Shown: positions 6,384 through 45,423, counted from the stretch's first letter. The stretch is DNA of 52,688 bases from Bacteroidales bacterium (GCA_017390085.1 JAFPDB010000140.1:1-52688); one strand, 5' to 3'. Translations and numbers: made by a program. The notes: generated by a model not told the origin, from the letters alone.

Positions 6384-7352
6384 ATGGAAATTTCCTTCAT
6401 AGACCTATTTGCTGGCATAGGCGGCATCAGAATCCCGTTCGAGGAACTGGGCTACGAATGCGTCTTCTCCTCTGAGTGGGACAAGGCGGCGCAAGCGTCG
6501 TATGAGGCCAACTTTGGCGAGAAACCGATGGGCGACATCACGAAAATTGCGGAGCAAGACATCCCTCCCCACGACCTGCTCCTTGCCGGATTCCCGTGCC
6601 AAGCGTTCAGCATCATGGGCAAGAAGAGAGGGTTTGAGGACACGAGGGGGACAATGTTTTTTGAAGTCGCAAGAATCCTCAAATACCATCGTCCGCAAGC
6701 TATTCTTCTTGAAAACGTGAAAAACCTCGTGACGCACGACGGGGGAAAGACGTTCGCTGTCATTCGCGACACGCTCACCGAGCTTGGGTACTTCATCAAG
6801 TGGAAAGTACTCAACGCGTTGGACTTCGGACTGCCACAAAAGAGGGAGAGAATCATAATAGTAGGGTTCAGAGACCCGGAAAAGACCGCCCGTTTCGACT
6901 TCGACTTTCAGCCCGTACCATATTCACTAAACGACATTATTGAACCCGACGAGTCGATTGACGACAGCTTGTGGGCATCGGCAACCATAGCCGCCAAGCG
7001 TAAACAGAGCGTCGTAGGGAAAAACGTTTTCTTCCCTTCAGTGTGGCACGAGAATAAATCGGGCAACATATCCGTACTTGACCACTCATGCGCACTACGC
7101 ACGGGGGCATCATACAACTACTTGCTCATCAACGGCGTACGCCGCCCGTCGTCACGAGAACTGCTTCGTTTGCAAGGCTTTCCCGACAGTTTCAAGATAG
7201 TAGTATCGCATGGAGAGATTCGACGCCAAACGGGGAACTCCGTTGCCGTGCCGATGATACGCTCCATTGCCCGAAAAATGTCCAGCCTATTAGACGAGAC
7301 CCAGCACTATGCAACACCCGAAATTAAGAGACCAGAAACGGTTGCTTGTTAG
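6384..7352 (+). CDS. DNA (cytosine-5)-methyltransferase, Type II
   Basis: 322 aa carrying the canonical m5C motifs FAGIGG (I), GFPCQAFS (IV), ENV (VI), QKRERI (VIII) and QTGNSV (X). The N-terminal half resembles M.HhaI-like enzymes. Target specificity cannot be determined by eye. Confidence 0.9.
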   Translation: MEISFIDLFAGIGGIRIPFEELGYECVFSSEWDKAAQASYEANFGEKPMGDITKIAEQDIPPHDLLLAGFPCQAFSIMGKKRGFEDTRGTMFFEVARILKYHRPQAILLENVKNLVTHDGGKTFAVIRDTLTELGYFIKWKVLNALDFGLPQKRERIIIVGFRDPEKTARFDFDFQPVPYSLNDIIEPDESIDDSLWASATIAAKRKQSVVGKNVFFPSVWHENKSGNISVLDHSCALRTGASYNYLLINGVRRPSSRELLRLQGFPDSFKIVVSHGEIRRQTGNSVAVPMIRSIARKMSSLLDETQHYATPEIKRPETVAC

Positions 7353-8046
7353 GGAGCCCTATCCTCTTAACGAGATTCCGGACGAGATAATATACTCGAT
7401 CGGCGGATACTTTGTCTTCCTACTCTATGCGGGACGAAACGACATAAGTGGCGACGACTGGGGCAACGCTTTTGCCGATGCCATTGGTGGCACTCATCTT
7501 GGCAGTCCTCTCGGCATTGCTGATGTCATTCGAGAAAAAATGGCATTGTCAATGAAAACAGTGAAAAATGCGGACCCTTTCTCCGCAAGCTCTGTGAGAA
7601 TAATTAGCGGAAGATGTTCTCCCGACTATTCATACGGCATCACAGATCCTCACGACGACGTAGAAAAAACAGGACGAGCTGTGCTCGAAATTTGGAATGA
7701 ACGCGTAAACATTGCGACAGAAGAGTATTCGCCTGTAAGGAACTGCGTCCTTATCCGTTCTAATGACTTGAAGAGTTTCTGCCTCTTTGAGGAGGACTGT
7801 CACCGATTCCGCACGGCTGACTACACATGGGAGGCAAACAAAAACGGAAATCTAATCGGGATTGAAAAATATACAGGAATAACCCGTTTCACGTGGCAAC
7901 CTCACGGCTCGCAATTCACGATTCATACCACCGTGCCCGACAACGCCCGAAAGTTCACTCTCCGACATCCTGACCCTATGAAGAAGGACGATATACTTGA
8001 AAAAATTGGTTTCGACTCTTCATGGCTAACCTTCACAAACAACTAA
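7309..8046 (+). CDS. putative Type II restriction endonuclease (cognate of the upstream m5C methyltransferase)
   Basis: 245-aa ORF overlapping the methyltransferase stop by 44 nt on the same strand, in the visibly lowest-GC stretch of this region. It has a possible PD-(D/E)xK-like segment (GIADV...LSMKTVK). The function is inferred from context only, and I recognise no named family. Confidence 0.5.
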   Translation: MQHPKLRDQKRLLVREPYPLNEIPDEIIYSIGGYFVFLLYAGRNDISGDDWGNAFADAIGGTHLGSPLGIADVIREKMALSMKTVKNADPFSASSVRIISGRCSPDYSYGITDPHDDVEKTGRAVLEIWNERVNIATEEYSPVRNCVLIRSNDLKSFCLFEEDCHRFRTADYTWEANKNGNLIGIEKYTGITRFTWQPHGSQFTIHTTVPDNARKFTLRHPDPMKKDDILEKIGFDSSWLTFTNN

Positions 8047-8049
8047 CCT

Positions 8050-8721
8050 ATGCCCACACCCTCGCAAAACAGGCTTAATTTCTCACACTTCCCCCTCCAA
8101 TTCATCACCAATGGGCACGATGGAGACGAGTGCGTCGAGCAGGTGAGGCGAGTGTTAGACGGCGGGTGCCTATGGGTCCAGCTCAGGATGAAAGGCGCCG
8201 AGGAGTCGGAAGTAGAGAAGACGGCGCGCAAGATAAAGGCACTGACCGACGAGGCCGGGGCGACCCTCATAATCGACGACCACGTGGGCGTGGCGCAACG
8301 CGTGGGGGCCAGCGGAGTCCACCTCGGGAAGAACGACATGAACCCGGCAGAGGCGAGGACCGCGCTTGGCGAAAAATTCATCATTGGCGGCACGTGCAAC
8401 ACGTTTGACGACATACTGAAAGTGAAAGACTCCGTGGACTACATCGGTTGCGGGCCTTTCCGCTTCACGACGACGAAACAGAATCTCGCCCCCACCCTCG
8501 GCATAGAAGGGTATCGGCAAATCGTATGGCAGTGCCGCAGCGAGGGCGTCAACATCCCCATCGTGGCCATTGGCGGGATTACGACGGCCGACATCGTCGA
8601 CATACTCAACGCCGGACCCGACGGAATAGCCCTTAGCGGCGAGATTCTCCGCTCCGCGTGCATCGAGCAGAAAGTCCGCGAGATTGTGACCGCCATCAAC
8701 AACGCCAAGGCTTCCGAATGA
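8050..8721 (+). CDS. thiE: thiamine-phosphate synthase
   Basis: 223 aa with LQFITN start region, HLGKNDM and AIGGI motifs typical of ThiE. It starts 4 nt after the putative endonuclease stop. Confidence 0.85.
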   Translation: MPTPSQNRLNFSHFPLQFITNGHDGDECVEQVRRVLDGGCLWVQLRMKGAEESEVEKTARKIKALTDEAGATLIIDDHVGVAQRVGASGVHLGKNDMNPAEARTALGEKFIIGGTCNTFDDILKVKDSVDYIGCGPFRFTTTKQNLAPTLGIEGYRQIVWQCRSEGVNIPIVAIGGITTADIVDILNAGPDGIALSGEILRSACIEQKVREIVTAINNAKASE

Positions 8722-11700
8722 CACACCCGCGGCTCTCCGCCATAACGATTTGCTCCTTGCTCCTCTCCGCCACGGCAACGGGCCAGAAGAGCGTGTCAAT
8801 ATCATGCGGCGAGGACTTCCTTTCAGCCGTCGCGACAAAGACGTATGACGGCACGTCGCGAATTGCGGAAGCCACGCGACAATACATAGCGACGAAAAAA
8901 ATCGCACCAACCATAGACGGCATCGACCAGGGCGACGACGTGACCGTCTGGTTCGACGGCTATTATGCCGACGAGCAGGGGCTGGAGGCGCAAGACGTGG
9001 CAAGCGTCACGCAACTGTTCCTCACGCTGAGCCTCGAGGGAGCCGATGCCTACAAGTATTCCGTGGCGAGCGACGCGACTCTCAACATGCCAGCCAACGT
9101 CAAACCGCTGAACCTTACGAGCGACACAGGATCGCCCATAGCGCAAGAGTTATTGCAAGCCTTCTACACATTTGAGTTTCAAGACACTGAGCTTCGGCGC
9201 GAGATAAGACCACTAAAGAAAGGGGGCGGAGTCTTTAAACTTAGAGACGAAAAGCTTCTCATCTACACCAACGCCGACGAGGGGTTCGCAGTCTACGCCA
9301 CGCAGGGCTACATCCCCAGCTTCGAGACCCTCGGCAAGGCCAAGATGCTCAAGATAGACCTCACCTGCGAGGGCAACGCGAATTACACCATCGACCCGCA
9401 CCGGACCAACTATTGCGACGATTGCGCTTCCGTCATCAATACACGCCCGCGATATGTGGTAAAGCCCGACACGGTTGTCGACTACGGAACTAAAGTCATG
9501 CTCGTGGCGCAGGACCCCCCCACGTGCACGACATACATTTACTACGGCACCGATTCCGCCACCAAGACCAAAGACCTGCCGGGCGGAATACTATGCGCGG
9601 GCAGGCACACGCTGACGGCCGTGCCGGTGAAAACTGACAACTATGACGACGCCCCGCAACACTTCAGCGTCAACGTCCGCCCCCGAGTGCTGACCGTTAA
9701 TGGCACGCCCTCCGTCGCGTCGCGCGCCTACGACGGCACGTGCCTTCCCGGCTCAATCTCGCTACCCGAACTCGACAAGTCCAACGTCTGGCAAGACGAC
9801 ACCGTCTCGCTACGCTACGAGGTCGACGCCTCGGCGGTCAAGCCCGCGGCGGGAAACTACATCTTGAGCCTCACGCCGCGCCTGACAAACCCCAACTACA
9901 CACTTGACGACCTCTCGACCCTCTTCATAACATTCAGCATAACAGAGGCCAAAACCCCCACCCTGTCGCTCACTGGCGACGAGCTGCCCTCCGTCGACAA
10001 GACATACGACGGCACGACGGAACTGCCGCTCCCCGAGGGCGGCGTGGCCCTGCCCGACAACAACGCCCACATAACCGGCGCCTACTACGACTCGCGCAAC
10101 GCCGGAAAGCGCGGCATAACAGTTGTCGTGAAGCCGGACGACAACTACCTGCTCGACGACGGGACAAAAGAACGCGAAGTCACCTACCCCAAGACCGGCA
10201 CAATCCTCAAACGCGACCTGACCATCAACCCCGACGCGGCCGTTGAGCCTAAAACATACGACGGCACCACGGGCATCGACCTCAAAACCATCACGTTGCC
10301 GACCCTCAACGGCGTAATAGCCGGCGACGACGTGCTGCTAAAGCCCGTCAACGCCGAAACCGACAAACCAGACCCCGGCAAACGCACCGCCACCATAAGT
10401 TTTGCCGCCCTAATGGGCGACGACGCGGCCAACTACGCGTTGAAAACACTGAAAACCACCGCGCCGGTCATTATCAATCCACGAGTCAAAAACGAGGTTC
10501 GCATCGTCTTGCGCGGCGACACGGCACTCACCTATGGGCAATCGACCATAGGCGCGTCGGACCCGGCCGACCTGCATATCGAGACCGAACCCCTCATAAG
10601 CGGCACTCTCATCATCGACGGGCATGAGGGAGGCGTGGCTCTCAACGCAGGCGTCAACGTGATCCGCCTCACGTTCGTGCCGCAAGACACGCTGACCTAC
10701 GCCACAGCCGACACCGTCGTCACAATCAGGGTGGCGCGGCGCAAGCTGTCGACCTACGGCTCTTTCGCCGCCATGAGCAAGATATACGACGGCACGACCA
10801 GCGTCGAAACGTCGACACTCACCCTGCCAGCGATTATCGGGTCCGTCGAGGGCGACGACATCGACCTGACAGTCGCGGAAGCCCATTTCGCCACGAAAAA
10901 CGTTGGCGGCAATTCCGTCGCCGCCCAACTCTCACTCTCGGGCAAAGACGCCGCCAACTACACCATTTCCGCCAACCTGCTGCAAGTGGAGGCCGACGCC
11001 CAGATTACGCCCCTCGCCCTCACGCTAACCGACACATTCGCCTCCTCGGGAAAAGTTTACGACGGTACGGCAGATATCGACAACGACAAGCTCACGCTCC
11101 CTGAAATCGTGGGGTCTATTGACGGCGACAACATTGGTTTGAAAATTAAAACGGCCTCGTTCGCTTCGGCAAGCGTCGGAAGCAATTCAGTCCACGCCAC
11201 GCTCACTCTCTCGGGCGACGACGCAGCCAACTACACAATCGACGAGAGACTCTTGAATGTCGAGGCGCAAGCGGAAGTTTCGCCCCGACCTGTCACGTTC
11301 TATGGCTCATTCGCTGCAAAAGACAAAGTCTACGACAGGACGACGGACGTAAATCCTGATTCCGTATCCCTACCAAAATTTGAAGGAGTCATAAATGGCG
11401 AAGATATTACTTTAAAAATTGAGAGCTTATTCTTCGCAACAAAGGAAGCTGGCCAAAACACCGTGATTGCCACATTATCACTCTCGGGCGACGACGCAGC
11501 CAACTACTCGGTCGACGAAGCCCTGCTCTCGGTCGAGACGGAGGCCGCAATTCTTCCTAAACCATTGACCTACAATCCGCTGATTGCCAAGTTCGAACCA
11601 AGGTATTACGACGGGACAACCATAGTGGCCGACAGCCAAATCGTATGCCTCCCTCACCTCGTCGGCATAATCCTCGGCGACGAAGTCTCGCCCGTTTGGA

Positions 11701-12728
11701 CGGCGGAATACGAGTCGGCGGAGGTAGGACCTAACGACATAATCCTCTCATGCTCGCTCACCGGCAAAGACGCCGGCAACTACTCTCGCCCCGACGACAC
11801 GGCAATAAACTGCGAAATCTTGGAGCGTAAGACCGAGCCAACTCCTGAACCTGAACCAACTCCTGAACCTGAACCAACTCCTGAGCCTGAACCAACTCCT
11901 GAGCCCGAGCCATCTCCTGAACCTGAGCCAACTCCTGAGCCCATCGTAGCGACCCTAATATCGTCGCACGTCATGACCATATGCGCGACGGGCGAGGCCA
12001 CCATCATAGCCGTCGTAGAATCCGGGCAACCATCGCACTACAACATCTCGTTCGACGATGCCGCCCTAAAGGCCGGATATGCCGACATAGTGGCGGCGAC
12101 GATACCCGAAACGGATGGTGACGAATACCGTATACCGGTACCGTCGCCCACGGGCGACGCCTACGGGACCATCGGCGGCACACTAACGCTCTGCCAAGCC
12201 GACGGCGCTTGTTCTGCCGCCATACCGTTCAGCATCTCGATCAGGCCGAGCGCGTCGATTGTGGGCGTCAAATTCGGCAACACGCTCTTCGTCGACAACT
12301 CCTCCTACCGCTTCACAGCCTACCAATGGTATGCCGACGGAAAGCCTATCGACGGCGCCACACGCCAATTCTACCACTCGTCGCCACTGCCCGAGGGCGA
12401 CTACACCGTGCGCCTTACACTGGCCGACGGCGATACGGCCGCTACTTGCCCATTTGCCGTAACGTCATTGCCCGACACGGATTCCAACTCACTCTCACTT
12501 TCGCCAAGCCCCGCAACGTTCGGGGCGAGCGTCAGGGTCGTGGCGACCGAAATTGCGGACGGAGAAGAGTTGACCGTTGAATTCTTCAACGCTTCTGGCT
12601 CGCTTTGCGAAAAGGCGACAGTAAGGAACGGCGAGACAATCGCCGTCACGCTCAGGCAGGGCGTTTACGCCGTCAGGTGCACGAGCGGCGGCTCCCGCGC
12701 TGGCCAGACCACATTTGCAGTCAAATAA
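8718..12728 (+). CDS. large T9SS-sorted cell-surface repeat protein (YDGT/MBG-like repeats, adhesin-like)
   Basis: The start was set at ATG 8718 (signal peptide MTHPRLSAITICSLLLSATATGQ), which overlaps the thiE stop as ATGA. There are at least 8 repeats of the pattern (K)xYDGTT...LP...G...GDD...L......AANY. An (EPTPEP)n linker follows. The C-terminal ~80 aa (LSLSPSPA...GVYAVRC...TTFAVK) resembles a T9SS type A sorting domain. Confidence 0.85.
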   Translation: MTHPRLSAITICSLLLSATATGQKSVSISCGEDFLSAVATKTYDGTSRIAEATRQYIATKKIAPTIDGIDQGDDVTVWFDGYYADEQGLEAQDVASVTQLFLTLSLEGADAYKYSVASDATLNMPANVKPLNLTSDTGSPIAQELLQAFYTFEFQDTELRREIRPLKKGGGVFKLRDEKLLIYTNADEGFAVYATQGYIPSFETLGKAKMLKIDLTCEGNANYTIDPHRTNYCDDCASVINTRPRYVVKPDTVVDYGTKVMLVAQDPPTCTTYIYYGTDSATKTKDLPGGILCAGRHTLTAVPVKTDNYDDAPQHFSVNVRPRVLTVNGTPSVASRAYDGTCLPGSISLPELDKSNVWQDDTVSLRYEVDASAVKPAAGNYILSLTPRLTNPNYTLDDLSTLFITFSITEAKTPTLSLTGDELPSVDKTYDGTTELPLPEGGVALPDNNAHITGAYYDSRNAGKRGITVVVKPDDNYLLDDGTKEREVTYPKTGTILKRDLTINPDAAVEPKTYDGTTGIDLKTITLPTLNGVIAGDDVLLKPVNAETDKPDPGKRTATISFAALMGDDAANYALKTLKTTAPVIINPRVKNEVRIVLRGDTALTYGQSTIGASDPADLHIETEPLISGTLIIDGHEGGVALNAGVNVIRLTFVPQDTLTYATADTVVTIRVARRKLSTYGSFAAMSKIYDGTTSVETSTLTLPAIIGSVEGDDIDLTVAEAHFATKNVGGNSVAAQLSLSGKDAANYTISANLLQVEADAQITPLALTLTDTFASSGKVYDGTADIDNDKLTLPEIVGSIDGDNIGLKIKTASFASASVGSNSVHATLTLSGDDAANYTIDERLLNVEAQAEVSPRPVTFYGSFAAKDKVYDRTTDVNPDSVSLPKFEGVINGEDITLKIESLFFATKEAGQNTVIATLSLSGDDAANYSVDEALLSVETEAAILPKPLTYNPLIAKFEPRYYDGTTIVADSQIVCLPHLVGIILGDEVSPVWTAEYESAEVGPNDIILSCSLTGKDAGNYSRPDDTAINCEILERKTEPTPEPEPTPEPEPTPEPEPTPEPEPSPEPEPTPEPIVATLISSHVMTICATGEATIIAVVESGQPSHYNISFDDAALKAGYADIVAATIPETDGDEYRIPVPSPTGDAYGTIGGTLTLCQADGACSAAIPFSISIRPSASIVGVKFGNTLFVDNSSYRFTAYQWYADGKPIDGATRQFYHSSPLPEGDYTVRLTLADGDTAATCPFAVTSLPDTDSNSLSLSPSPATFGASVRVVATEIADGEELTVEFFNASGSLCEKATVRNGETIAVTLRQGVYAVRCTSGGSRAGQTTFAVK
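10741..11830 (+). repeat. four tandem ~270-bp coding repeats (YDGT/MBG-like domains) inside the adhesin gene
   Basis: Repeat units start near 10741, 11011, 11281 and 11551. The translated units align by eye (FAA.SK.YDGT...LP...G...GDDI.L......FA...VG.N.V.A.L.LSGDDAANY). Confidence 0.7.
11835..11943 (+). repeat. six tandem 18-bp units (gaaccaactcctgaacct-like) encoding an (EPTPEP)n linker
   Basis: Read directly from the sequence at 11835-11943. The units differ only by synonymous or near-synonymous changes. Confidence 0.85.
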
Positions 12729-12771: not shown

Positions 12772-12865
12772 GGCAGTGAGCCACGAGGGGTGCTGAGAAA
12801 GCTCGGCTGAGATTATACCCGGAAAACCTGATTCAGGTAATGCTGACGAAGGGAATACAGGCAAT
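12772..12865 (+). promoter_or_regulatory. TPP (THI-box) riboswitch
   Basis: Contains ACGAGGGGUGC ... CUGAGAUUAUACCC ... AACCUGAUUCAGGUAAUGCUGACGAAGGGAA, which matches the conserved THI-box core (compare E. coli thiM: GGGGUGC, CUGAGA.AUACCC, ACCUGAUCUGGAUAAUGCCAGCG.AGGGAA). It lies upstream of thiS-thiG-thiC-thiH. Confidence 0.85.
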
Positions 12866-12890
12866 TTTTTCTAATCGACGTGCGAAAGCG

Positions 12891-21675: not shown

Positions 21676-21881
21676 TTTCTTGGTTTGAATATTAAAAAAT
21701 TGAACACTGATTGAGCGCGAATATATGCCATTAAAAAATGACTACAAAAGAGGTCTGTATTCAATAACTGATTTTGTTTGAGCAAATGGTAATCAACAAC
21801 CATGCCACAAGCTGTCGACCTTAGGATCTTGCAAGATTTATAGCCCCATTCGGGCTACATTGTTTCTCGTGGAACATACAC

Positions 21882-25586: not shown

Positions 25587-25602
25587 GGTTCCACGTGAAA
25601 CG
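25587..25602. other. parS-like site (GGTTCCACGTGAAACG, 14/16 to TGTTNCACGTGAAACA)
   Basis: Read directly. The core GTTCCACGTGAAAC is identical to the core of the canonical Bacillus-type parS. It is embedded in a 36-bp imperfect palindrome (25577-25612). Confidence 0.5.
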
Positions 25603-35798: not shown

Positions 35799-36797
35799 TT
35801 ATTTAGCAAAATTCTTTGAAAGCTCGAGCATCGCGTCGATAGGGCGTCGAGCCTTGGCTGCCACCTCGGGTGCCACATTGACCTCGGGCCACTCGTATTT
35901 GAGAGTGAGATAGATTTTCTCCAACGTATTGAGCTTCATGAAGTTGCAATTGTTGCAACCGCAAGTGGAGTCGATTGGCGGGGCCGCGATGAGCTCACGG
36001 TCGGGAAACGACTTGCGCATCTGGTGGAGGATTCCGCTCTCGGTAGCTACAATGAAACGCTTGGCCTTGCTCTTGCCTATGTGGGAGAGCAGGGCTGCCG
36101 TTGAGCCCACGAAATCGGCAAGCACGATTATCTGGTGCTTGCACTCGGGATGTGCAATGAGCTCGGCGTCAGGATAGGTCTTTTTGAGGTCGATAATCTT
36201 TTCGAGGCTGAACTGCTCGTGGACGTGGCAAGCGCCGTCCCAAAGGAGCATCTGGCGACCCGTCTGGGCGTTGATGTAGGAGCCCAGGTTACGGTCGGGG
36301 CCGAAGATTATCTTCTCGTCTTTTGGGAAGGAGTTGACGACCTGGAGAGCGTTGGTGCTGGTGACAACGACGTCGGTCATGGCCTTAATCTCGGCCGACG
36401 TGTTGACGTAGCTTACGACCTTATGGCCAGGGTTTTGGGCTAAGAAACGTGCGAAGTCGTCGGGCTGGCAACTGTCGGCGAGGGAGCATCCGGCGTTGAA
36501 GTCGGGAATCAGGACTTTCTTGTCGGGATTGAGTATTTTGACGGTCTCGCCCATGAAGTGCACTCCCGCCAGTAGTATGATGTCGGCTTGGATGCCGACG
36601 GCCTTTTGCGCCAGGGCGAGACTGTCGCCTATAATGTCGGCAATGTCCTGAATGTCGGCCGTCTGGTAGTAATGTGCCATGAGGACGGCATTCTTCTGCT
36701 TCTTGAGCTTTTCGATTTCGGCCAGAAGGTCGATACCTTCAGGAATGGGCTCGCAGACGTAACCCTTCTCCTGCCATGTTTGCTTGACGGTCATCAT
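35799..36797 (-). CDS. nadA: quinolinate synthase
   Basis: 332 aa, NadA-like throughout (VLMAHYYQ, HFMGETVK, GACHVHEQF, CGCNNCNFMK). Confidence 0.9.
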   Translation of the reverse strand: MMTVKQTWQEKGYVCEPIPEGIDLLAEIEKLKKQKNAVLMAHYYQTADIQDIADIIGDSLALAQKAVGIQADIILLAGVHFMGETVKILNPDKKVLIPDFNAGCSLADSCQPDDFARFLAQNPGHKVVSYVNTSAEIKAMTDVVVTSTNALQVVNSFPKDEKIIFGPDRNLGSYINAQTGRQMLLWDGACHVHEQFSLEKIIDLKKTYPDAELIAHPECKHQIIVLADFVGSTAALLSHIGKSKAKRFIVATESGILHQMRKSFPDRELIAAPPIDSTCGCNNCNFMKLNTLEKIYLTLKYEWPEVNVAPEVAAKARRPIDAMLELSKNFAK

Positions 36798-36896
36798 TTC
36801 TGTTTGTTGCCAAAAGCGGACGGTAACTTCCGCCTCACTCTTCAGGGTGATTGTGTCCTAGTGACTGTGGTACATACTACCCAAAAGGTACAATTA

Positions 36897-36904
36897 CAAA
36901 GCTA
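36897..36904 (-). promoter_or_regulatory. candidate -7 promoter box (TAGCTTTG) for nadA
   Basis: Minus-strand TAGCTTTG matches TAnnTTTG about 100 nt upstream of the nadA ATG. No clean -33 box is present. Confidence 0.3.
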
Positions 36905-37005
36905 ACTAATTTATTTTGCTTTCTGACATCCGAAACCCCACTACGGCTCGTATTCGTTAATTGGCCTCTGATATCAACTATGATTTTGATACCGACTGAC
37001 CACTT

Positions 37006-37076
37006 ATATATTATTAATTCCTCATTTACTCTTTAAATAGGAATAATAATAATATAGTCCGTCAATCATGTCAGCA
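37006..37076 (+). repeat. AT-rich palindromic header module, copy A
   Basis: The core tactctttaaataggaataataataatatagtccgtcaatcatgtcag has about 44/48 identity to copy B. It has an internal imperfect inverted repeat (atattattaattcc / ggaataataataatat). Confidence 0.8.
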
Positions 37077-37485
37077 ACAACAAGTTGCTCCCCACCACCC
37101 TACTCGTCCATTGACACCGCCTCGCTGTTAACAAACTGCGCAATCAACTTCAATTTGCGACATAAAACAGTGAGAAACAGCAAATTAACAATCGTATTGT
37201 CAATTGTCGATAACGTAGCCTAACATTACCGACAACCCTGCTCGACCTGTCAGTAAACCATCCAAAACTGTCGGCAACGCACATAATAACGCCCTGCGAA
37301 ACTGACAGGCGAACGTATCTGACAACACGGTCGTCCTTTATTGACAACCTATGTTCTCCAAAATGGACCGAAACTGACCGTTTGAGACGAGAAACTGACA
37401 GGCTCGCCCGCAAAGGGTGGATGCTTTTCGGCCAAAGTCCATTACGAGTGTCAATAACAACCCCCAAAGGGTTACCAACGTCTCA

Positions 37486-37556
37486 ATATTATTATTACTC
37501 ATTACTTACTCTTTAAAAGGAATAATAATAATATAGCTCGTCAATCTTGTCAGTAA
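37486..37556 (+). repeat. AT-rich palindromic header module, copy B
   Basis: The core tactctttaaaaggaataataataatatagctcgtcaatcttgtcag lies 480 bp downstream of copy A in the same orientation. Confidence 0.8.
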
Positions 37557-37952
37557 AACCCACCTGCACACCCATAGCCCGCCATATACTGACAATCTCC
37601 CCACAACACGCCAACCGCACCCCGTGCGCTGCGCAAAGTCAACCCATTGAACCACAACCCACTGACAGCACCAGTGTCAATTGTTCAAAACGCAAGGTCT
37701 GCAACCCAGCAACCATTGCGGCCTTGTTTGTAAAACGGCCGCGCCTGTCCATAAGCTGGCGATAACGCGCCCACATACTGACAGCCCGACGCAACGAACA
37801 ACACTAATCAGGAATCTGACTGCGAAACTGTCCACTCGCCTCCGACAAACTGACATCCCGACCTGATAAACCAACAGAGCCGCCCTGAAACGCTTACGCA
37901 ATAACACTCCCCTCCCCAGGTAGAAACCAACAGATTATCTATTTGATTTTCA

Positions 37953-37960
37953 TAATTTTG
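37953..37960 (+). promoter_or_regulatory. candidate -7 promoter box (TAATTTTG) for hemW
   Basis: Matches TAnnTTTG about 82 nt upstream of the hemW ATG at 38042. Confidence 0.3.
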
Positions 37961-38041
37961 TGGAAAAACATAAGTGAAACCGACAGGAACTGACAATAGT
38001 GTCGAAAACGTGTTAGCAACCTGTTGGTAAATCATACGGAA

Positions 38042-39184
38042 ATGTTTGATTATCAATTGTTTCACGTGGAACATTCGCCTTTCGGGCTGTACATCCACGT
38101 GCCTTTTTGTTTGAAGAAGTGTATCTATTGCGGCTTTTGCAGCGTGATAAATACGTCGTTGATTGACAGGTATTTGGATGTGCTGGCGAAAGAGATGGGG
38201 AGGTCGGCGGTGGCGGGTTTGAAGCCTCGGACTGTGTATGTAGGCGGCGGCACGCCGTCGTGCATTGGAGTACGAAATATCGAAAGGGCTTTGCGGATTG
38301 TGGGTGAGGCTTTTGACTTGAGTGAGATTTTGGAATACACGTTTGAGTGTAATCCGGAGGACGTGGATGATGAGCTGGCCGCGGCGCTTGCGGGCAATGG
38401 CGTGAACCGCGTGAGCATGGGCGTTCAGAGTTTGGATGACAAGATGCTGAAATTCCTCGGGCGACGGCATAAGGCGGCCAAAGTGGGCGAGGCCATTGGC
38501 TCGTTACGGAAGGCAGGGATTGGAAATATTAGTGTGGATTGCATTTATGGGCTGCCGCGAATTGATGGCTTCGACCCGCTTGCCGACGTAGACAGGTTCT
38601 TGGCGTTGGGAGTTGAGCATATGTCGTTCTACTCGCTTCAGTATGAAGAAAATGCCCAGATAACCAGAATGGTCGAGCGGGGCGAAGTGGACATGATGAG
38701 CGACGACGACGTTTGCGACCTCTACGACGCATTGGTCGAGAAGATGCGCGGTGCCGGCTACGTCCACTACGAGCTGTCGAACTTCGCCAAGCCTGGTCGG
38801 GAGTCGAAACACAACTTGTCGTATTGGGACAGAGTGCCTTATTGGTCCTTTGGCCCGGCGGCGGCGTCGTTCGACGGGAAAGTGAGAATGACTAACACGT
38901 GCAACGTGGAAGAGTATCTGGCAAGCGAGGGGCAGAAGAAAAGCCTCGTGGAAAAATTGACCGACGAACAAATCTTCATCGAGCGAGTGATGCTGAAAAT
39001 GCGGAAGAGCGACGGGTTAAACCTTTCGGAAGTCGACGACCGGTATATGCCGTCTTTGCGGGAGAAATTGGGGATTGAAATGAAAGAGGGGAACGTCGTC
39101 AGATTGGCCAACGGGAACTATGCCATTCCCGAGGGGCGTTGGATGGTCTCCGATTCAATCATCGGACGGCTGGCCTTGATTTGA
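38042..39184 (+). CDS. hemW: radical SAM heme chaperone HemW (HemN-like, oxygen-independent coproporphyrinogen oxidase family)
   Basis: The start was set at ATG 38042 (MFDYQLFHVEHSPFGLYIHVPFCLKKCIYCGF, CxxxCxxC motif). The tracked start at 38024 is a TTG. Confidence 0.85.
   Translation: MFDYQLFHVEHSPFGLYIHVPFCLKKCIYCGFCSVINTSLIDRYLDVLAKEMGRSAVAGLKPRTVYVGGGTPSCIGVRNIERALRIVGEAFDLSEILEYTFECNPEDVDDELAAALAGNGVNRVSMGVQSLDDKMLKFLGRRHKAAKVGEAIGSLRKAGIGNISVDCIYGLPRIDGFDPLADVDRFLALGVEHMSFYSLQYEENAQITRMVERGEVDMMSDDDVCDLYDALVEKMRGAGYVHYELSNFAKPGRESKHNLSYWDRVPYWSFGPAAASFDGKVRMTNTCNVEEYLASEGQKKSLVEKLTDEQIFIERVMLKMRKSDGLNLSEVDDRYMPSLREKLGIEMKEGNVVRLANGNYAIPEGRWMVSDSIIGRLALI
38058..38073. other. canonical parS centromere-like site
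   Basis: The plus strand reads TGTTTCACGTGGAACA. Its reverse complement is TGTTCCACGTGAAACA, a 16/16 match to the classic Bacillus-type parS. It lies in codons 6-11 of hemW. Confidence 0.65.
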
Positions 39185-41885: not shown

Positions 41886-41991
41886 TGCTTTAAATTGTGA
41901 GTGATGTTTTGGTATTTAGCCCGCGATGTTATGAAAAGGCGCCCTCATGAGCAAAAAGTGCGCGCTAATATGGAGCGTGTAAAAGAACGAA

Positions 41992-42021
41992 GGGCGGCAG
42001 AAGTGTAGCCTTCTGCCGCCC
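41992..42021 (-). terminator. strong GC hairpin (possible insulator/terminator upstream of the CDF gene)
   Basis: A 12-bp perfect stem, GGGCGGCAGAAG (41992-42003) / CTTCTGCCGCCC (42010-42021), with a 6-nt loop. The minus strand continues TTCGTTCTTTT. Confidence 0.4.
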
Positions 42022-42447
42022 CTCACCGCTATGAGAAAAATCACAATCAATAAACTGTACCGTTGTACAGGGGGCGCAACCATCACGGCGCTACCTTTTA
42101 TGAAAAACTCCTTTCACGAGCAAAGGTAGAAACATATATTAAATACGCAAACGGTTTTCCTTTATAAAGTTGCGTTGTCAAAAGAGTTTTAACAGAACTG
42201 AGCCAGCAAGTCCATTCTATTCGTCACTCCAATTGGAAAAAAAATTAACCGCTCGTCAATTCCACCGCGCAACTCGTCAAAAACTTAAAATTGTATAGCA
42301 AATATTGTGATGCGAGGTTTAAGTTTGCGGCGTCAATGAAAGACAAGTTTCTATGTCTGCATGTTCAATGGTCCGTTTGGACGTGAGTTCGAGGGCCTTT
42401 CTTATTCAGAGGTTATCTTTACAGGTAGTGATAAGCAATCATGAAAG

Positions 42448-42487
42448 CTGAGCCTTAGTTGTGAAACTGAGGCTCAGAATTTTTTTG
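42448..42487 (+). terminator. intrinsic terminator with no upstream ORF
   Basis: CTGAGCCT (42448-42455) / AGGCTCAG (42470-42477), extendable by 2 pairs, followed by AATTTTTTTG. Confidence 0.6.
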
Positions 42488-42596
42488 TGGGGGGTATTCG
42501 ATAGTTTTTCTATCCTGACACGCCAGCTTTGGTAAATGAGAGTAGGCGGTTGGAAATCATAAGCTTGCAATAATATATTATGCGTACGAACATAAG

Positions 42597-43529
42597 CTAC
42601 TCCTCATAAATTGACAACTTTACAATGTTGTTTTTAAGTTGGCCTCTCAGGATGGAAGCTAAGATAGCGTATTGTCCGCCACGCTGTAACCCTGCCGGCA
42701 GGTACATTTTTGCGGGGGTGATGACATCGCCCAGGCTCTGATGCGGACGCTCATCGTTGTAGAATGCGATGAACGAGCCTATTCCCGCACGTAGCCGACT
42801 GACTGTCGCCTCGGGGTATCTGTGCACGTACTCCTGCTTTATTGTGCGCCAAAAGCGCTCTATCCAGATATTGTCCTTGCATCGCCTGCGCCCGTCCATG
42901 CTGATGGCTATTCCGAGCGATTTGAGTGCGTTCACCCACGCGGGGGATGTGTACTGGCTCCCTTGGTCCGAGTTGACGATTTCAAGGCGTCCATGCCTGC
43001 TGACGCACTCCGCGAGCTGCTCCGTGCAGTTCGAGCCCTCAAGTGTGCTGCTCAGGCGCCACCCGACTGTGTATCGGCTGTACACGTCTATTATCGCGTA
43101 AAGGTACATGAACCACTTCTCCATCGGTATGTAGCTTATGTCGGTGCTCCACACCCTGTTGCGCCTGACAATCGGGAGGCCGCGGAGGTGGTACGGGTGG
43201 ACGTACTCGGCGTTCCCCGGCTTGCTGAGCTTGCGCTGCTGCGGGTACACTGCGTGCAGGCGCATCTTGCGCAGTGGTCGCCTGACGCGCTTCGGGTTGG
43301 CGGCGTACCCGTGCATGCGCAGCATCCTCGTCATGGTCATGACACCGGCGGTGGGGTGCGACTGGTAATACTCGTCCATCATGCGCATCATGTCCTTGTT
43401 CTCGTCGCTCTCGCCCTTGCGCTTGTAGTAGTGGCCCGTGCGGGTCAGCCCGGTCAGGGCGCAGTATCGGCTCCAGCTCATGCCTACGGGACGGCGGTCG
43501 GAAAGGCTCTCTATCTGTCCTTTCGACAC
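42597..43529 (-). CDS. IS3-family transposase OrfB (DDE integrase core)
   Basis: 310 aa with WSTDISYIP...YLYAIIDVYSR (D), VNSDQGSQYTS (D) and the downstream E region ERFWRTIKQEY. It would normally be expressed as an OrfAB fusion. Confidence 0.85.
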   Translation of the reverse strand: MSKGQIESLSDRRPVGMSWSRYCALTGLTRTGHYYKRKGESDENKDMMRMMDEYYQSHPTAGVMTMTRMLRMHGYAANPKRVRRPLRKMRLHAVYPQQRKLSKPGNAEYVHPYHLRGLPIVRRNRVWSTDISYIPMEKWFMYLYAIIDVYSRYTVGWRLSSTLEGSNCTEQLAECVSRHGRLEIVNSDQGSQYTSPAWVNALKSLGIAISMDGRRRCKDNIWIERFWRTIKQEYVHRYPEATVSRLRAGIGSFIAFYNDERPHQSLGDVITPAKMYLPAGLQRGGQYAILASILRGQLKNNIVKLSIYEE

Positions 43530-43816
43530 AGTGTCCCGTAGGCTTCCGCAAAAAAATCCACTTCCACGGTGAGTTGCCCGACTTTCTTCAGCAGCTTTTC
43601 GTTGGTGCGCCTAAGCTCCTTTATCTCCTTGTCCTCCTTGGCGGGGCTTGCGAGCACCTCTTTCGCCTTTGACACAAATTCTGCTTTCCACGCCGTTATC
43701 TGCTTGGCGGCTAAGCCTTATTTCTGGCACAATGTGGCCAGCGTCTCCCGCTCTTTGAGAGCCTCAATCACGACCTTCGTCTTGAACGAGGCGTCGTAGT
43801 TACTCCTTCTTCCCAT
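43511..43816 (-). pseudogene. IS3-family transposase OrfA (HTH) interrupted by an in-frame TAA
   Basis: My minus-strand translation from ATG 43816 reads MGRRSNYDASFKTKVVIEALKERETLATLCQK*GLAAKQITAWKAEFV...LLKKVGQLTVEVDFF. The stop at 43718-43720 sits where related OrfA proteins have Tyr or Phe. Confidence 0.7.
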
Positions 43817-43890
43817 TCTTGTTAAGTTAGATTGCAAAATTAGTACTTTGCAGTTGTCTTAATTTTTGGGGGTATTATTGACTAATATGT

Positions 43891-43989
43891 ACGAATAGCG
43901 CACAAATCGCAAATCACAACGAATCCCGTCTTTGCCTCTCAACCTTTAGCTATGAATGTCTTTCACTAGACAATTTGTGCGCTATTCGT
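43891..43989. repeat. 17-bp perfect inverted repeat (acgaatagcgcacaaat / atttgtgcgctattcgt) with a 65-bp spacer
   Basis: Read directly: arms at 43891-43907 and 43973-43989. Confidence 0.85.
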
Positions 43990-44377
43990 CCTGACTTTTA
44001 ATCTGACGGCTTCATAAAGTGACGTAGCTTTTTTAATATGAAATGATAAGAAATAAAAATTGTTGCTTTTGTAATGGAGCTGAGGCATATTCTTTTTGTG
44101 TTAGGGGCAGACTCTGTGATTTGTTTAAAAAAAACATTTCTGATATGCATGAAAATTTACGAACGATAGCTGAATAACGTAAAGTGTATTGCTATATATT
44201 TGCGCCCCGAAAAAACGACAGTAATCTGACACACCCACATAGAAAGCTATTGAAAAGCCGGCGAAAAAAGTGTTCTGTGTGAAGTGTTTAGGTTTATTGC
44301 TTCTTTTTGGAGACAACAATTAATACTAACTCTAAACTGAAAATGAAAGTTTTCATTGTAGTAGCATATTAAATGTC

Positions 44378-45016
44378 ATGAAACGTATAGTATTGCTCTT
44401 CATGCTGCTGCTAAGTGTACTTTATACCAAGGCATCGGAGCAGCAGGACACGTTGCAAAACAAGCTTCTGATAGCTTACGAGATTCATAAGGCAGACTGG
44501 GTGAACATAGACGCCATGTCGTCAACTAAGGGAATCTCTGCTTGCTATATGCGAAACTATGTTGTTGGACCTCGTTATTGTTTAGCCGTTGAATATGGAG
44601 CCAAAGTGACCTGGCTACATGGTGTGAAAAAGTCAGCTGCGTATGACGCTTACACTGACAGGGTTGATTATTTGAACGTATCTTTACCAGTAAATCTCAC
44701 AAGGTCGATTTCCATTGGCACTTCTGGTGTTTCTTTGGCTCCTTTCTTCGGACCTAACTTCAAGTTTAACATCGTGGGGAAATACCGAGAATCGTTCGAC
44801 GGCAAAAAGCGTGATAGTGTGAACTATCTTAGTCGCGATAGAAAGACACCAGCGAGCATATTTCAGTTCGGCATGAACGTGGGGGTTGGCTTCTATTACA
44901 AGCAGTTTGTTGTCGCCTATACATTCCAGCCCGATTTCACAGACTATGTGAAAGATGACATGGAATGTTGTAAACACACCAATACTAATTCATTCTCCGT
45001 TGGTGTTCGGTTTTGA
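44378..45016 (+). CDS. small outer-membrane beta-barrel (porin-family) protein
   Basis: 212 aa with a signal peptide (MKRIVLLFMLLLSVLYTKA), alternating-hydrophobic strands and a C-terminal ...SFSVGVRF ending in Phe. It sits in an AT-rich context. Confidence 0.7.
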   Translation: MKRIVLLFMLLLSVLYTKASEQQDTLQNKLLIAYEIHKADWVNIDAMSSTKGISACYMRNYVVGPRYCLAVEYGAKVTWLHGVKKSAAYDAYTDRVDYLNVSLPVNLTRSISIGTSGVSLAPFFGPNFKFNIVGKYRESFDGKKRDSVNYLSRDRKTPASIFQFGMNVGVGFYYKQFVVAYTFQPDFTDYVKDDMECCKHTNTNSFSVGVRF

Positions 45017-45423
45017 CGCAAAAGAGGATAATTCATGAATAGGGGGCTGTGCATATGGCGCAGTCCCTCTCCTTTTGTGATAAGCAAAGGTTTTGCGCCC
45101 TCCCTTTCAAAATGATATAAAATTTAGGTGTTTTGCTTACGTTTCTTTGAGTGAGATACGTAAAGTGCAATGGTTGTACGGTTAAAATTGCCCTTGTAGC
45201 TATTGAATTGTTAGTGTTTTGGTTAAATTTGTATGGTTTCAGAAGAATATTAGCGCTAAACTTGAAATTCTGAAATCTAATAAACAATAAGCATATTTCT
45301 ATCCATTCCCCCTATTTTAGATGGGGTGATGAGGAAAGAAAAAAGATACTGGACAACAACACCCCTTAATCAGATGGGGGCGCAGAACCAAGAAAACAGA
45401 AACACTACAATAAAAAAACGACC

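Follow-up and report, generated by a model that had tools for sequence, protein, structure and literature searches.

A probable chromosomal replication origin between nadA and hemW in an uncultured gut Bacteroidales bacterium

The basal unwinding system (BUS) of the Bacillus subtilis incC type is composed of DnaA boxes, a short spacer, DnaA-trios and an AT-rich region (PMC6669920, PMC8287927), and the rule used to search for it accepts a box with no more than two mismatches to the standard of the species located 0-16 bp from the DnaA-trios (PMC8287927). Origins with more than one part are described as the bipartite oriC1/oriC2 of Helicobacter pylori (PMC8235120) and as the dual oriC of Pseudomonas aeruginosa and, by prediction, of the Halomonadaceae (bioRxiv 10.1101/2025.08.05.668638). 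The subject here is the 1244-bp gap (36798-38041) between the divergent genes nadA and hemW in a 52.7-kb stretch of DNA (JAFPDB010000140.1, termed the window), which is very probably the chromosomal replication origin (oriC) of this uncultured gut Bacteroidales bacterium, judging from its sequence and from its comparison with a set of fetched loci designated by L-numbers. In Escherichia coli oriC, the low-affinity DnaA sites are placed 2 bp apart in phased arrays, and divergent DnaA boxes, for example TTATCAACA sites, are reportedly discussed for the Thermoanaerobacter and Cyanothece origins. The nadA-hemW gap would be unusual as an oriC in being far from dnaA and tied to nadA and to a parS site inside hemW, with boxes that are mostly drifted and an unwinding module that is tandemly duplicated. 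An oriC is a known kind of element, and the puzzle left by a preliminary description of the region is therefore largely resolved; its proposal of a protein-binding platform linked to parS or the origin is supported by the boxes, the parS site and the skew at the syntenic site and is refined in that the region itself would be the origin.

The gap is the largest in the window and extends from the end of nadA to the hemW ATG at 38042 (taken as the start, TTG 38024 being a mechanical open reading frame (ORF) start only). The preliminary description reported more than 1 kb without a credible ORF, and this is borne out over the full gap, where no conserved ORF is present. The longest ORF (37150-37467, minus strand, 105 amino acids) has no family match and is broken by a 1-nt indel frameshift in conspecific contigs, in which the gap is kept at approximately 97% identity, and a Pfam search with eight gap ORFs gave none above threshold.

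The two least stable 50-mers of the window are both located in the gap (37007-37056 and 37486-37535) and correspond to two AT-rich elements termed header 1 and header 2. The calculated nearest-neighbour ΔG is -47.5 for header 1 and -47.7 for header 2, compared with a window mean of -72.9 (standard deviation (SD) 5.6) and -53.4 for the next-best segment, placing the headers about 4.5 SD from the mean. Each header is flanked by boxes on both sides, so that an unwinding-prone AT-rich element lies directly beside putative initiator sites, and the layout runs in the order of one box, a spacer of about 5 nt, about 50 bp of 86% A+T DNA ending in GGAATAATAATAATATAG, a second spacer of 3-5 nt and two abutting boxes in the opposite orientation, with the boxes downstream of these pairs mostly reversed in orientation. 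At least three consecutive NAN trinucleotides, as sought for DnaA-trios, are present in both headers (GAA TAA TAA TAA TAT on the plus strand and (TAT)4 on the minus strand). The arrangement closely resembles the B. subtilis-type BUS, with two tandem 9-mer boxes positioned 3-5 bp from at least four trinucleotides with A as the middle base (TAA/TAT), then the most AT-rich stretch of the region, distal boxes in both orientations and a site between divergent housekeeping genes. Differences from the B. subtilis-type BUS are that the trio-adjacent boxes have 3-5 mismatches to TTATCCACA, that the gap is not beside dnaA/dnaN and that a second, tandem copy of the entire proximal module is present. Outside the gap, the window has no cluster of header or box motifs. 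A metagenome scan with a degenerate header pattern returned, among at least 120 matches listed, 119 chance matches with no nadA or hemW and a single true relative (L192), which among the matches listed is again in a nadA-hemW gap; as most of the listed matches are due to chance, the scan says little about the occurrence of headers elsewhere.

The boxes of the gap amount to about 25 nine-base sites, of which about 20, of the form wwAYTGACA, surround the header-adjacent pairs. The hexamer ACTGAC occurs eight times on the plus strand of the gap compared with 11 times in the other 51 kb, and 14 of the 35 window-wide matches to AACTGACA (at most one mismatch) fall within 800 bp. A matrix built from 106 sites in seven species gives the consensus wwAYTGACA, which shares with the DnaA box TTATCCACA, in the same register, A3, Y4 and A7-C8-A9; near-canonical boxes are few (TTATCGACA, TTTTCCACA, TTACCAACA and TTATTGACA). 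Comparison with relatives places the two kinds of box at the same positions. To the left of the header, CGACTGACC in the window corresponds to the DnaA-box-like TTTTCAACA in L090 and TTTTCGACA in L011, and beside the trinucleotide run CGTCAATCA corresponds to TGTAGATAA or TGTAAATAA in Muribaculaceae and TGTCAATAG in Bacteroides. The tail array adjacent to hemW is homologous to TTATTGACA followed by two to three copies of TGTTGATAA in relatives, with GAACTGACA and TGTCGAAAA of the window aligning with TTATTGACA and TGTTGATAA of L091 and L092. The intermediate form TTATTGACA is found twice in the window (37338 and 37449) and beside canonical boxes in L055 and L033. Because the YTGACA boxes occupy canonical-box positions and an intermediate form occurs, wwAYTGACA is read as a probable drifted DnaA box, to which DnaA would still bind.

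As in E. coli oriC, strong boxes are few and occur together with numerous weak sites in the same orientation that lie several bases off the consensus; the window differs in its irregular spacing (14-70 bp) and in the sharp consensus YTGACA common to its weak sites. The lineage-specific drift of the box consensus with retention of the origin architecture is shared with Thermoanaerobacter and Cyanothece, but the YTGACA core alters box positions 4-6, and DnaA binding to it is inferred only.

The gap is built from two colinear, diverged units of about 480 bp, each opening with a conserved AT-rich header. Ungapped comparison of the header modules at 37006 and 37486 gives 72-79% identity, and a global alignment of 37006-37485 with 37486-37965 has identical residues in 282 of 499 columns. 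Scores for the alignment of the units lie 10.7 SD above shuffled sequences for the whole unit and 4.8 SD above for the bodies alone; Tandem Repeats Finder misses the units because they are too diverged. The anchors TGTCAATTGT (37198 and 37675), ATAACGC (37286 and 37762) and ACTGACAG (37301 and 37777) recur in both. The header identity and the shuffle test agree with the tandem units at about 37006 and 37486 given in the preliminary description, and the anchors quoted there at consistent offsets were all found in place; the partial third unit that it placed at 36920-37005 resolves into two single boxes (36920-36928 and 36993-37001) flanking header 1.

The unit 1 body is orthologous to the single units found in L009, L091, L092, L011 and L090 (z 9-15), and the body of unit 2 resembles unit 1 only (z 5.7-7.2) and not the units of other species. 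In L010 this is reversed, with the hemW-proximal unit being the orthologous one, and its relative L192 has two nearly identical headers. An alignment of 10 header copies illustrates that headers within one genome are more alike than orthologous headers, indicating independent duplications or concerted evolution. The header with its box array would have been duplicated in tandem in the window species and its sister species L089, giving two modules about 480 bp apart, and duplication may have occurred independently in at least two lineages, one comprising the window and L089 and the other L010 and L192. The presence of more than one box cluster or module per chromosome, and the recurrent gain or loss of modules among relatives, is shared with the bipartite and dual origins of H. 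pylori and of P. aeruginosa/Halomonadaceae. In those origins the parts are split by dnaA or placed at distant loci and are not sequence duplicates, whereas the window has tandem paralogous modules that share a single intergenic region and each have an AT-rich header.

Comparison with L089, in which HemW is 86% identical to that of the window, shows a difference of 23-28% at the 4-fold degenerate sites of nadA, hemW and ruvB, compared with 14.5% for the gap. Within the unit bodies, the box-core positions are identical at 90 of 90 sites and the other positions at 78.5% (Fisher p = 2e-9). The invariance of the box cores and the divergence of the non-box positions point to selection on the boxes and headers with near-neutral spacers, which in turn argues for a protein-binding array and not an RNA or a protein-coding remnant. 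The alignment blocks covering both headers are 85-95% identical to L089 (85-92% for those covering header 2) compared with about 75% at neutral sites, so that both headers, and with them both duplicated modules, appear to be maintained by purifying selection; both modules may fire, or one may serve only to recruit the initiator.

Header 1 is conserved in 8+ species. The gap (686-1327 bp) and the order of its parts are common to L009, L010, L011, L090-L092, L192 and L214, and the architecture recurs also in L089. In those distant relatives NadA is about 85-87% identical where measured (L009-L011 and L192) and HemW only 48-57%. The shared order is the nadA promoter, a box, the header, two tandem boxes, the composite GTGTCAGTTGTTGATAAC, several YTGACA boxes, tandem TGTTGATAA boxes and a parS-like palindrome in the first codons of hemW. 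Synteny of the region extends to at least 10 species, its motifs being under purifying selection, and a conserved syntenic non-coding region with selected motifs is what is looked for in an oriC.

The wider Bacteroidia indicate that nadA is a conserved origin neighbour. Canonical DnaA boxes (TTATCAACA, TGTTGATAA and TTTTCAACA) number 4-10 in the 800 bp upstream of nadA in 46 of 76 other Bacteroidia loci, compared with about 0.8 expected; the lineages represented include Parabacteroides, Bacteroides, Barnesiella, Muribaculaceae, Paludibacter, Microbacter and Marinilabiliaceae. In 45 loci with such a cluster, a regression of plus-strand GC skew at third codon positions (GC3 skew) took gene orientation and the side of the cluster as predictors. 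The side term is b = +0.152 (95% confidence interval (CI) 0.127-0.175) with the expected sign in 41 of the 45, and pseudo-origin controls placed within one side gave +0.02 and -0.04. The change at the cluster is from C-rich to G-rich on the plus strand, which is the signature of an origin and the reverse of that of a terminus.

Three parS-like sites are found in the window compared with 0.17 expected, all within 17 kb. The site in hemW is conserved in position in every relative as well as in Marinilabiliaceae loci (at least 18 loci), and as a conserved, origin-proximal 16-bp palindrome near TGTTNCACGTGAAACA it has the properties of a putative parS. A 16-bp palindrome matching TGTTTCACGTGAAACA at 15 of 16 positions beside the proposed origin, with further copies nearby, is the arrangement of origin-proximal parS/ParB sites; a difference is that the window copy falls within the first codons of hemW and is retained there across families.

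Taken as an oriC, the gap would function by an initiator, presumably DnaA, binding the array of about 25 nine-base boxes, mostly of the lineage-specific form wwAYTGACA. Strand opening would start in a header, a placement suggested by the match of the abutting boxes, the (AAT)n run and the 86% A+T segment to the arrangement of a BUS. The parS site located 30 bp past the last box would be where ParB loads, linking segregation to the origin.

Several observations weigh against this assignment. Only three boxes of the gap differ by at most one base from TTATCCACA or TTATCAACA, which is 3 of the window total of 17 in 2.3% of the sequence and a modest enrichment, the cluster being strong once wwAYTGACA, the form of the lineage, is included. 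Between TTATCCACA and the commonest box, AAACTGACA, there are five mismatches. With TTATCCACA as the standard, the header-adjacent boxes lie outside the two-mismatch limit of the BUS search rule and come within it only if the lineage-specific TTATTGACA is accepted as the standard; the homologous Muribaculaceae boxes TGTAGATAA and TGTAAATAA lie within it. A dnaA gene was not found in the window or in any fetched locus with an E. coli DnaA domain IV sequence as the query, and the literature searched contains no placement of a Bacteroidales origin at nadA, although DoriC, which was outside the search, may list the location. The window itself has no replication-type skew switch (b = 0.008), and the pooled signal of its own lineage is weak (b = 0.044, CI 0.012-0.078). 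The absence of a switch is attributed to codon usage, which makes GC3 skew negative in nearly every gene on either strand, and the bulk skew of the window therefore tracks gene orientation only and is uninformative.

The most serious alternative concerns only which protein sits on the YTGACA boxes. In this reading the gap is still an origin, with wwAYTGACA bound by a second, lineage-specific origin-binding or regulatory protein and DnaA confined to the few near-canonical boxes, and it is considered rather unlikely. The central triplet of the boxes is unlike that of every canonical DnaA box, the boxes are strongly expanded in this lineage only and their orientation pattern is conserved, all of which a second protein would account for. 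Their register with the DnaA box, their standing in for canonical boxes at homologous positions and the intermediate TTATTGACA beside canonical boxes in Bacteroidales origins such as L055 and L033 favour DnaA instead, and no gene for a candidate protein is linked to the region. Tentatively, and with a little more confidence than the second-protein reading receives, the lineage may have rebuilt its origin, the YTGACA box largely replacing the canonical one and the full unwinding module being duplicated with both copies under selection; replacement of the canonical box would imply either a DnaA with shifted specificity or a second origin-binding protein. Replication could also start elsewhere, with the gap serving as a DnaA-titrating or regulatory cluster (datA/DARS-like) or as an operator array for nadA and hemW. 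In its favour, model bacteria do carry DnaA-box clusters away from their origins, a box and the hemW -7 motif overlap and the window is without its own skew switch. This is nevertheless quite improbable given the GC3-skew sign change that 41 of the 45 other Bacteroidia loci show at the syntenic cluster, the location of the most unstable DNA of the window inside the array, the adjoining parS site and a number of sites (about 25) far exceeding the needs of an operator.

Of the remaining alternatives, tandem non-coding RNA genes and a decayed element were raised in the preliminary description. Two tandem non-coding RNA genes, one per unit, would fit the plus-strand minimum free energy z-scores of -4.7 and -2.2 for the units and the strand asymmetry in composition seen in this species. 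Folding is just as good on the minus strand, however (z -4.2), since the stems are inverted copies of boxes, and there is no TAnnTTTG promoter after either header. The RNAalifold covariation term is unfavourable (+4.1), with two compensatory pairs compared with about 30 broken ones, the spacers are near-neutral and the composition asymmetry is absent in relatives. The Rfam search that the description had pointed to gave, in a permissive scan (E<=10) of 36500-38400, three chance-level matches only, and a tRNA/tmRNA scan found none. With conservation limited to short boxes, RNA genes are very unlikely here. Least credible of all is a decayed gene, a remnant of an insertion sequence (IS) or miniature inverted-repeat transposable element, or a plasmid-type iteron origin captured by the chromosome, to which the tandem duplication and the repeated short motifs bear a superficial resemblance as iterons or element ends. 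As in iteron plasmid origins, repeated short motifs that are putatively bound by protein lie beside an AT-rich segment; in place of the regular 17-22-bp direct repeats beside a rep gene that define such origins, the window has irregularly spaced 9-bp repeats, no rep gene nearby and a chromosomal, syntenic context. No similarity was found in a distant-mode BLASTN search of 72,556 plasmids and 50,697 phage records, the gap ORFs have no Pfam match, the header and box motifs are clustered at this site alone within the window, the one true listed metagenome match is again a nadA-hemW gap, and the synteny in at least 10 species with selected motifs is unlike decay.

Assignment of the gap as oriC supplies a function for the longest part of the window that had no annotation and yields a testable rule, namely that the Bacteroidia origin appears upstream of nadA and not at dnaA, often with parS in the start of hemW. 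The rule would help in orienting metagenome-assembled genomes, in peak-to-trough estimates of growth rate and in the design of replicating vectors for gut Bacteroidales. If the duplication is as proposed, one origin would offer two alternative or cooperating unwinding sites, and the duplicated module and drifted consensus bear on how far a functional origin can change, with one-module and two-module species of the same family providing a natural experiment.

Table 1. Positions of the genes, promoter motifs, boxes, headers and parS-like sites in window coordinates
Feature	Position	Strand	Remarks
Second parS-like site TGTTTCTCGTGGAACA	21861-21876		2 mismatches; intergenic
Third parS-like site GGTTCCACGTGAAACG	25587-25602		3 mismatches; intergenic, just upstream of mnmG/gidA
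nadA (quinolinate synthase)	35799-36797	-	Left flank; PF02445 on the called gene
nadA promoter -7 motif TAGCTTTG	36897-36904	-	Fits the Bacteroidetes TAnnTTTG consensus
Box TTTCTGACA	36920-36928	+	Left of header 1; conserved in L089
Box CGACTGACC	36993-37001	+	4 nt left of header 1
Header 1, putative DNA unwinding element	37006-37057		86% A+T; (AAT)4/(TAA)3 run at 37041-37056
Two abutting 9-mer boxes TGATTGACG, TTGCTGACA	37060-37077	-	Beside the trinucleotide run of header 1
Body of unit 1	37078-37485		wwAYTGACA-type boxes and two DnaA-box-like 9-mers
Unit 1 body boxes (starts)	37108, 37198, 37248, 37299, 37316, 37338, 37371, 37392, 37449	+, -, -, +, +, +, +, +, -	
DnaA-box-like TTATCGACA	37205-37213	-	1 mismatch; unit 1 body
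DnaA-box-like TTACCAACG	37472-37480	+	Unit 1 body
Header 2, second putative unwinding element	37486-37536		86% A+T; (AAT)4 run at 37520-37536
Two abutting 9-mer boxes AGATTGACG, TTACTGACA	37539-37556	-	Beside header 2
Body of unit 2	37557-37950		Boxes; spacers strongly A+C-rich
Unit 2 body boxes (starts)	37586, 37637, 37659, 37675, 37775, 37813, 37847	+, -, +, -, +, +, +	
TTATCGCCA	37757-37765	-	Unit 2 body
hemW promoter -7 motif TAATTTTG	37953-37960	+	TAnnTTTG match
DnaA-box-like TTTTCCACA	37959-37967	-	Overlaps the hemW -7 motif
Tail box array beside hemW	37977-38030		AAACCGACA, GAACTGACA (+), then TGTCGAAAA, TGTTAGCAA, TGTTGGTAA (read on +)
hemW (radical-SAM heme chaperone family)	38042-39184	+	Right flank
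parS-like palindrome TGTTTCACGTGGAACA	38058-38073		15/16 to consensus TGTTTCACGTGAAACA; hemW first codons (..FHVEH..)

The plus strand of the gap is A+C-rich, with a GC skew of -0.11 to -0.43 and an AT skew of up to +0.33. The asymmetry described earlier is thereby confirmed for the window, but it is not conserved, as G exceeds C on the homologous strand of L009, L091 and L092, and because it is absent from several relatives it is not a defining property of the region. The spacers at 37557-37950 are strongly A+C-rich with C about 1.5 times G, likewise in L089, L010 and L192, and A+C richness is confined to the two-unit species of higher G+C content, the species with G in excess of C being one-unit species. 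The hemW gene is itself a composition outlier, with a GC3 skew of +0.195 compared with -0.1 to -0.4 in almost all other genes. Its evolution is also fast, with 52-57% identity to relatives in which NadA is 86-87% identical, and relative to the sister species its replacement sites diverge 4-8 times faster than those of nadA.

Only two TAnnTTTG matches occur in 36700-38100, serving nadA and hemW. The nadA -7 motif is within a block 95% identical to L089, and the block at 37931-37990 containing the hemW promoter region is 98% identical. The nadA leader (36798-36895, minus strand, about 100 nt) is 95% identical to that of the sister species and contains a hairpin at about 36812-36834 formed by a GC stem (GCGGA...TCCGC) followed by UUUU, with no Rfam match. 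The stem is the same in both species while the loop differs, suggesting that the hairpin may be an attenuator. In many Bacteroidales, among them L014, L033, L069, L073 and L084, a convergent DnaA-box pair, TTATCAACA-nnn-TGTTAATAA-nn-TGCAAAGTTAATAA, is located about 200 nt upstream of nadA and abuts the nadA promoter, so that transcription of nadA may be coupled to initiator occupancy in Bacteroidales with this pair; the trio and AT-rich element of these species lie within the nadA 5' leader. An NrtR operator was rejected as the identity of the palindromic box pairs upstream of nadA in other Bacteroidales, as NrtR in Bacteroidetes regulates pentose genes and not nadA (PMC2330246).

Elsewhere in the window, a C-5 cytosine DNA methylase and the next ORF, which overlaps it and has no family match (6384-8046), may form a restriction-modification pair, and 8658-12728 encodes a protein of 1356 amino acids with five YDG-domain repeats and a low-complexity acidic repeat region. 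A whole-window Rfam scan at the gathering threshold gave a thiamine pyrophosphate (TPP) riboswitch only, which lies outside the gap at 12776-12873 (56 bits, above the gathering score) upstream of thiS-thiC-thiH-like genes. An IS-type transposase (rve integrase core, 42597-43529) is located within 41886-45423 between ORF-poor AT-rich flanks of 711 and 848 bp, and its presence at the matching end of the conspecific contigs L001-L007 indicates that it is fixed in the species. Among the compared loci, L009, L013, L026 and L082 are Bacteroidales-type nadA loci in records titled Pseudobutyrivibrio, Clostridium, Desulfovibrionaceae and Staphylococcus, and these bins are probably mislabelled or contaminated.

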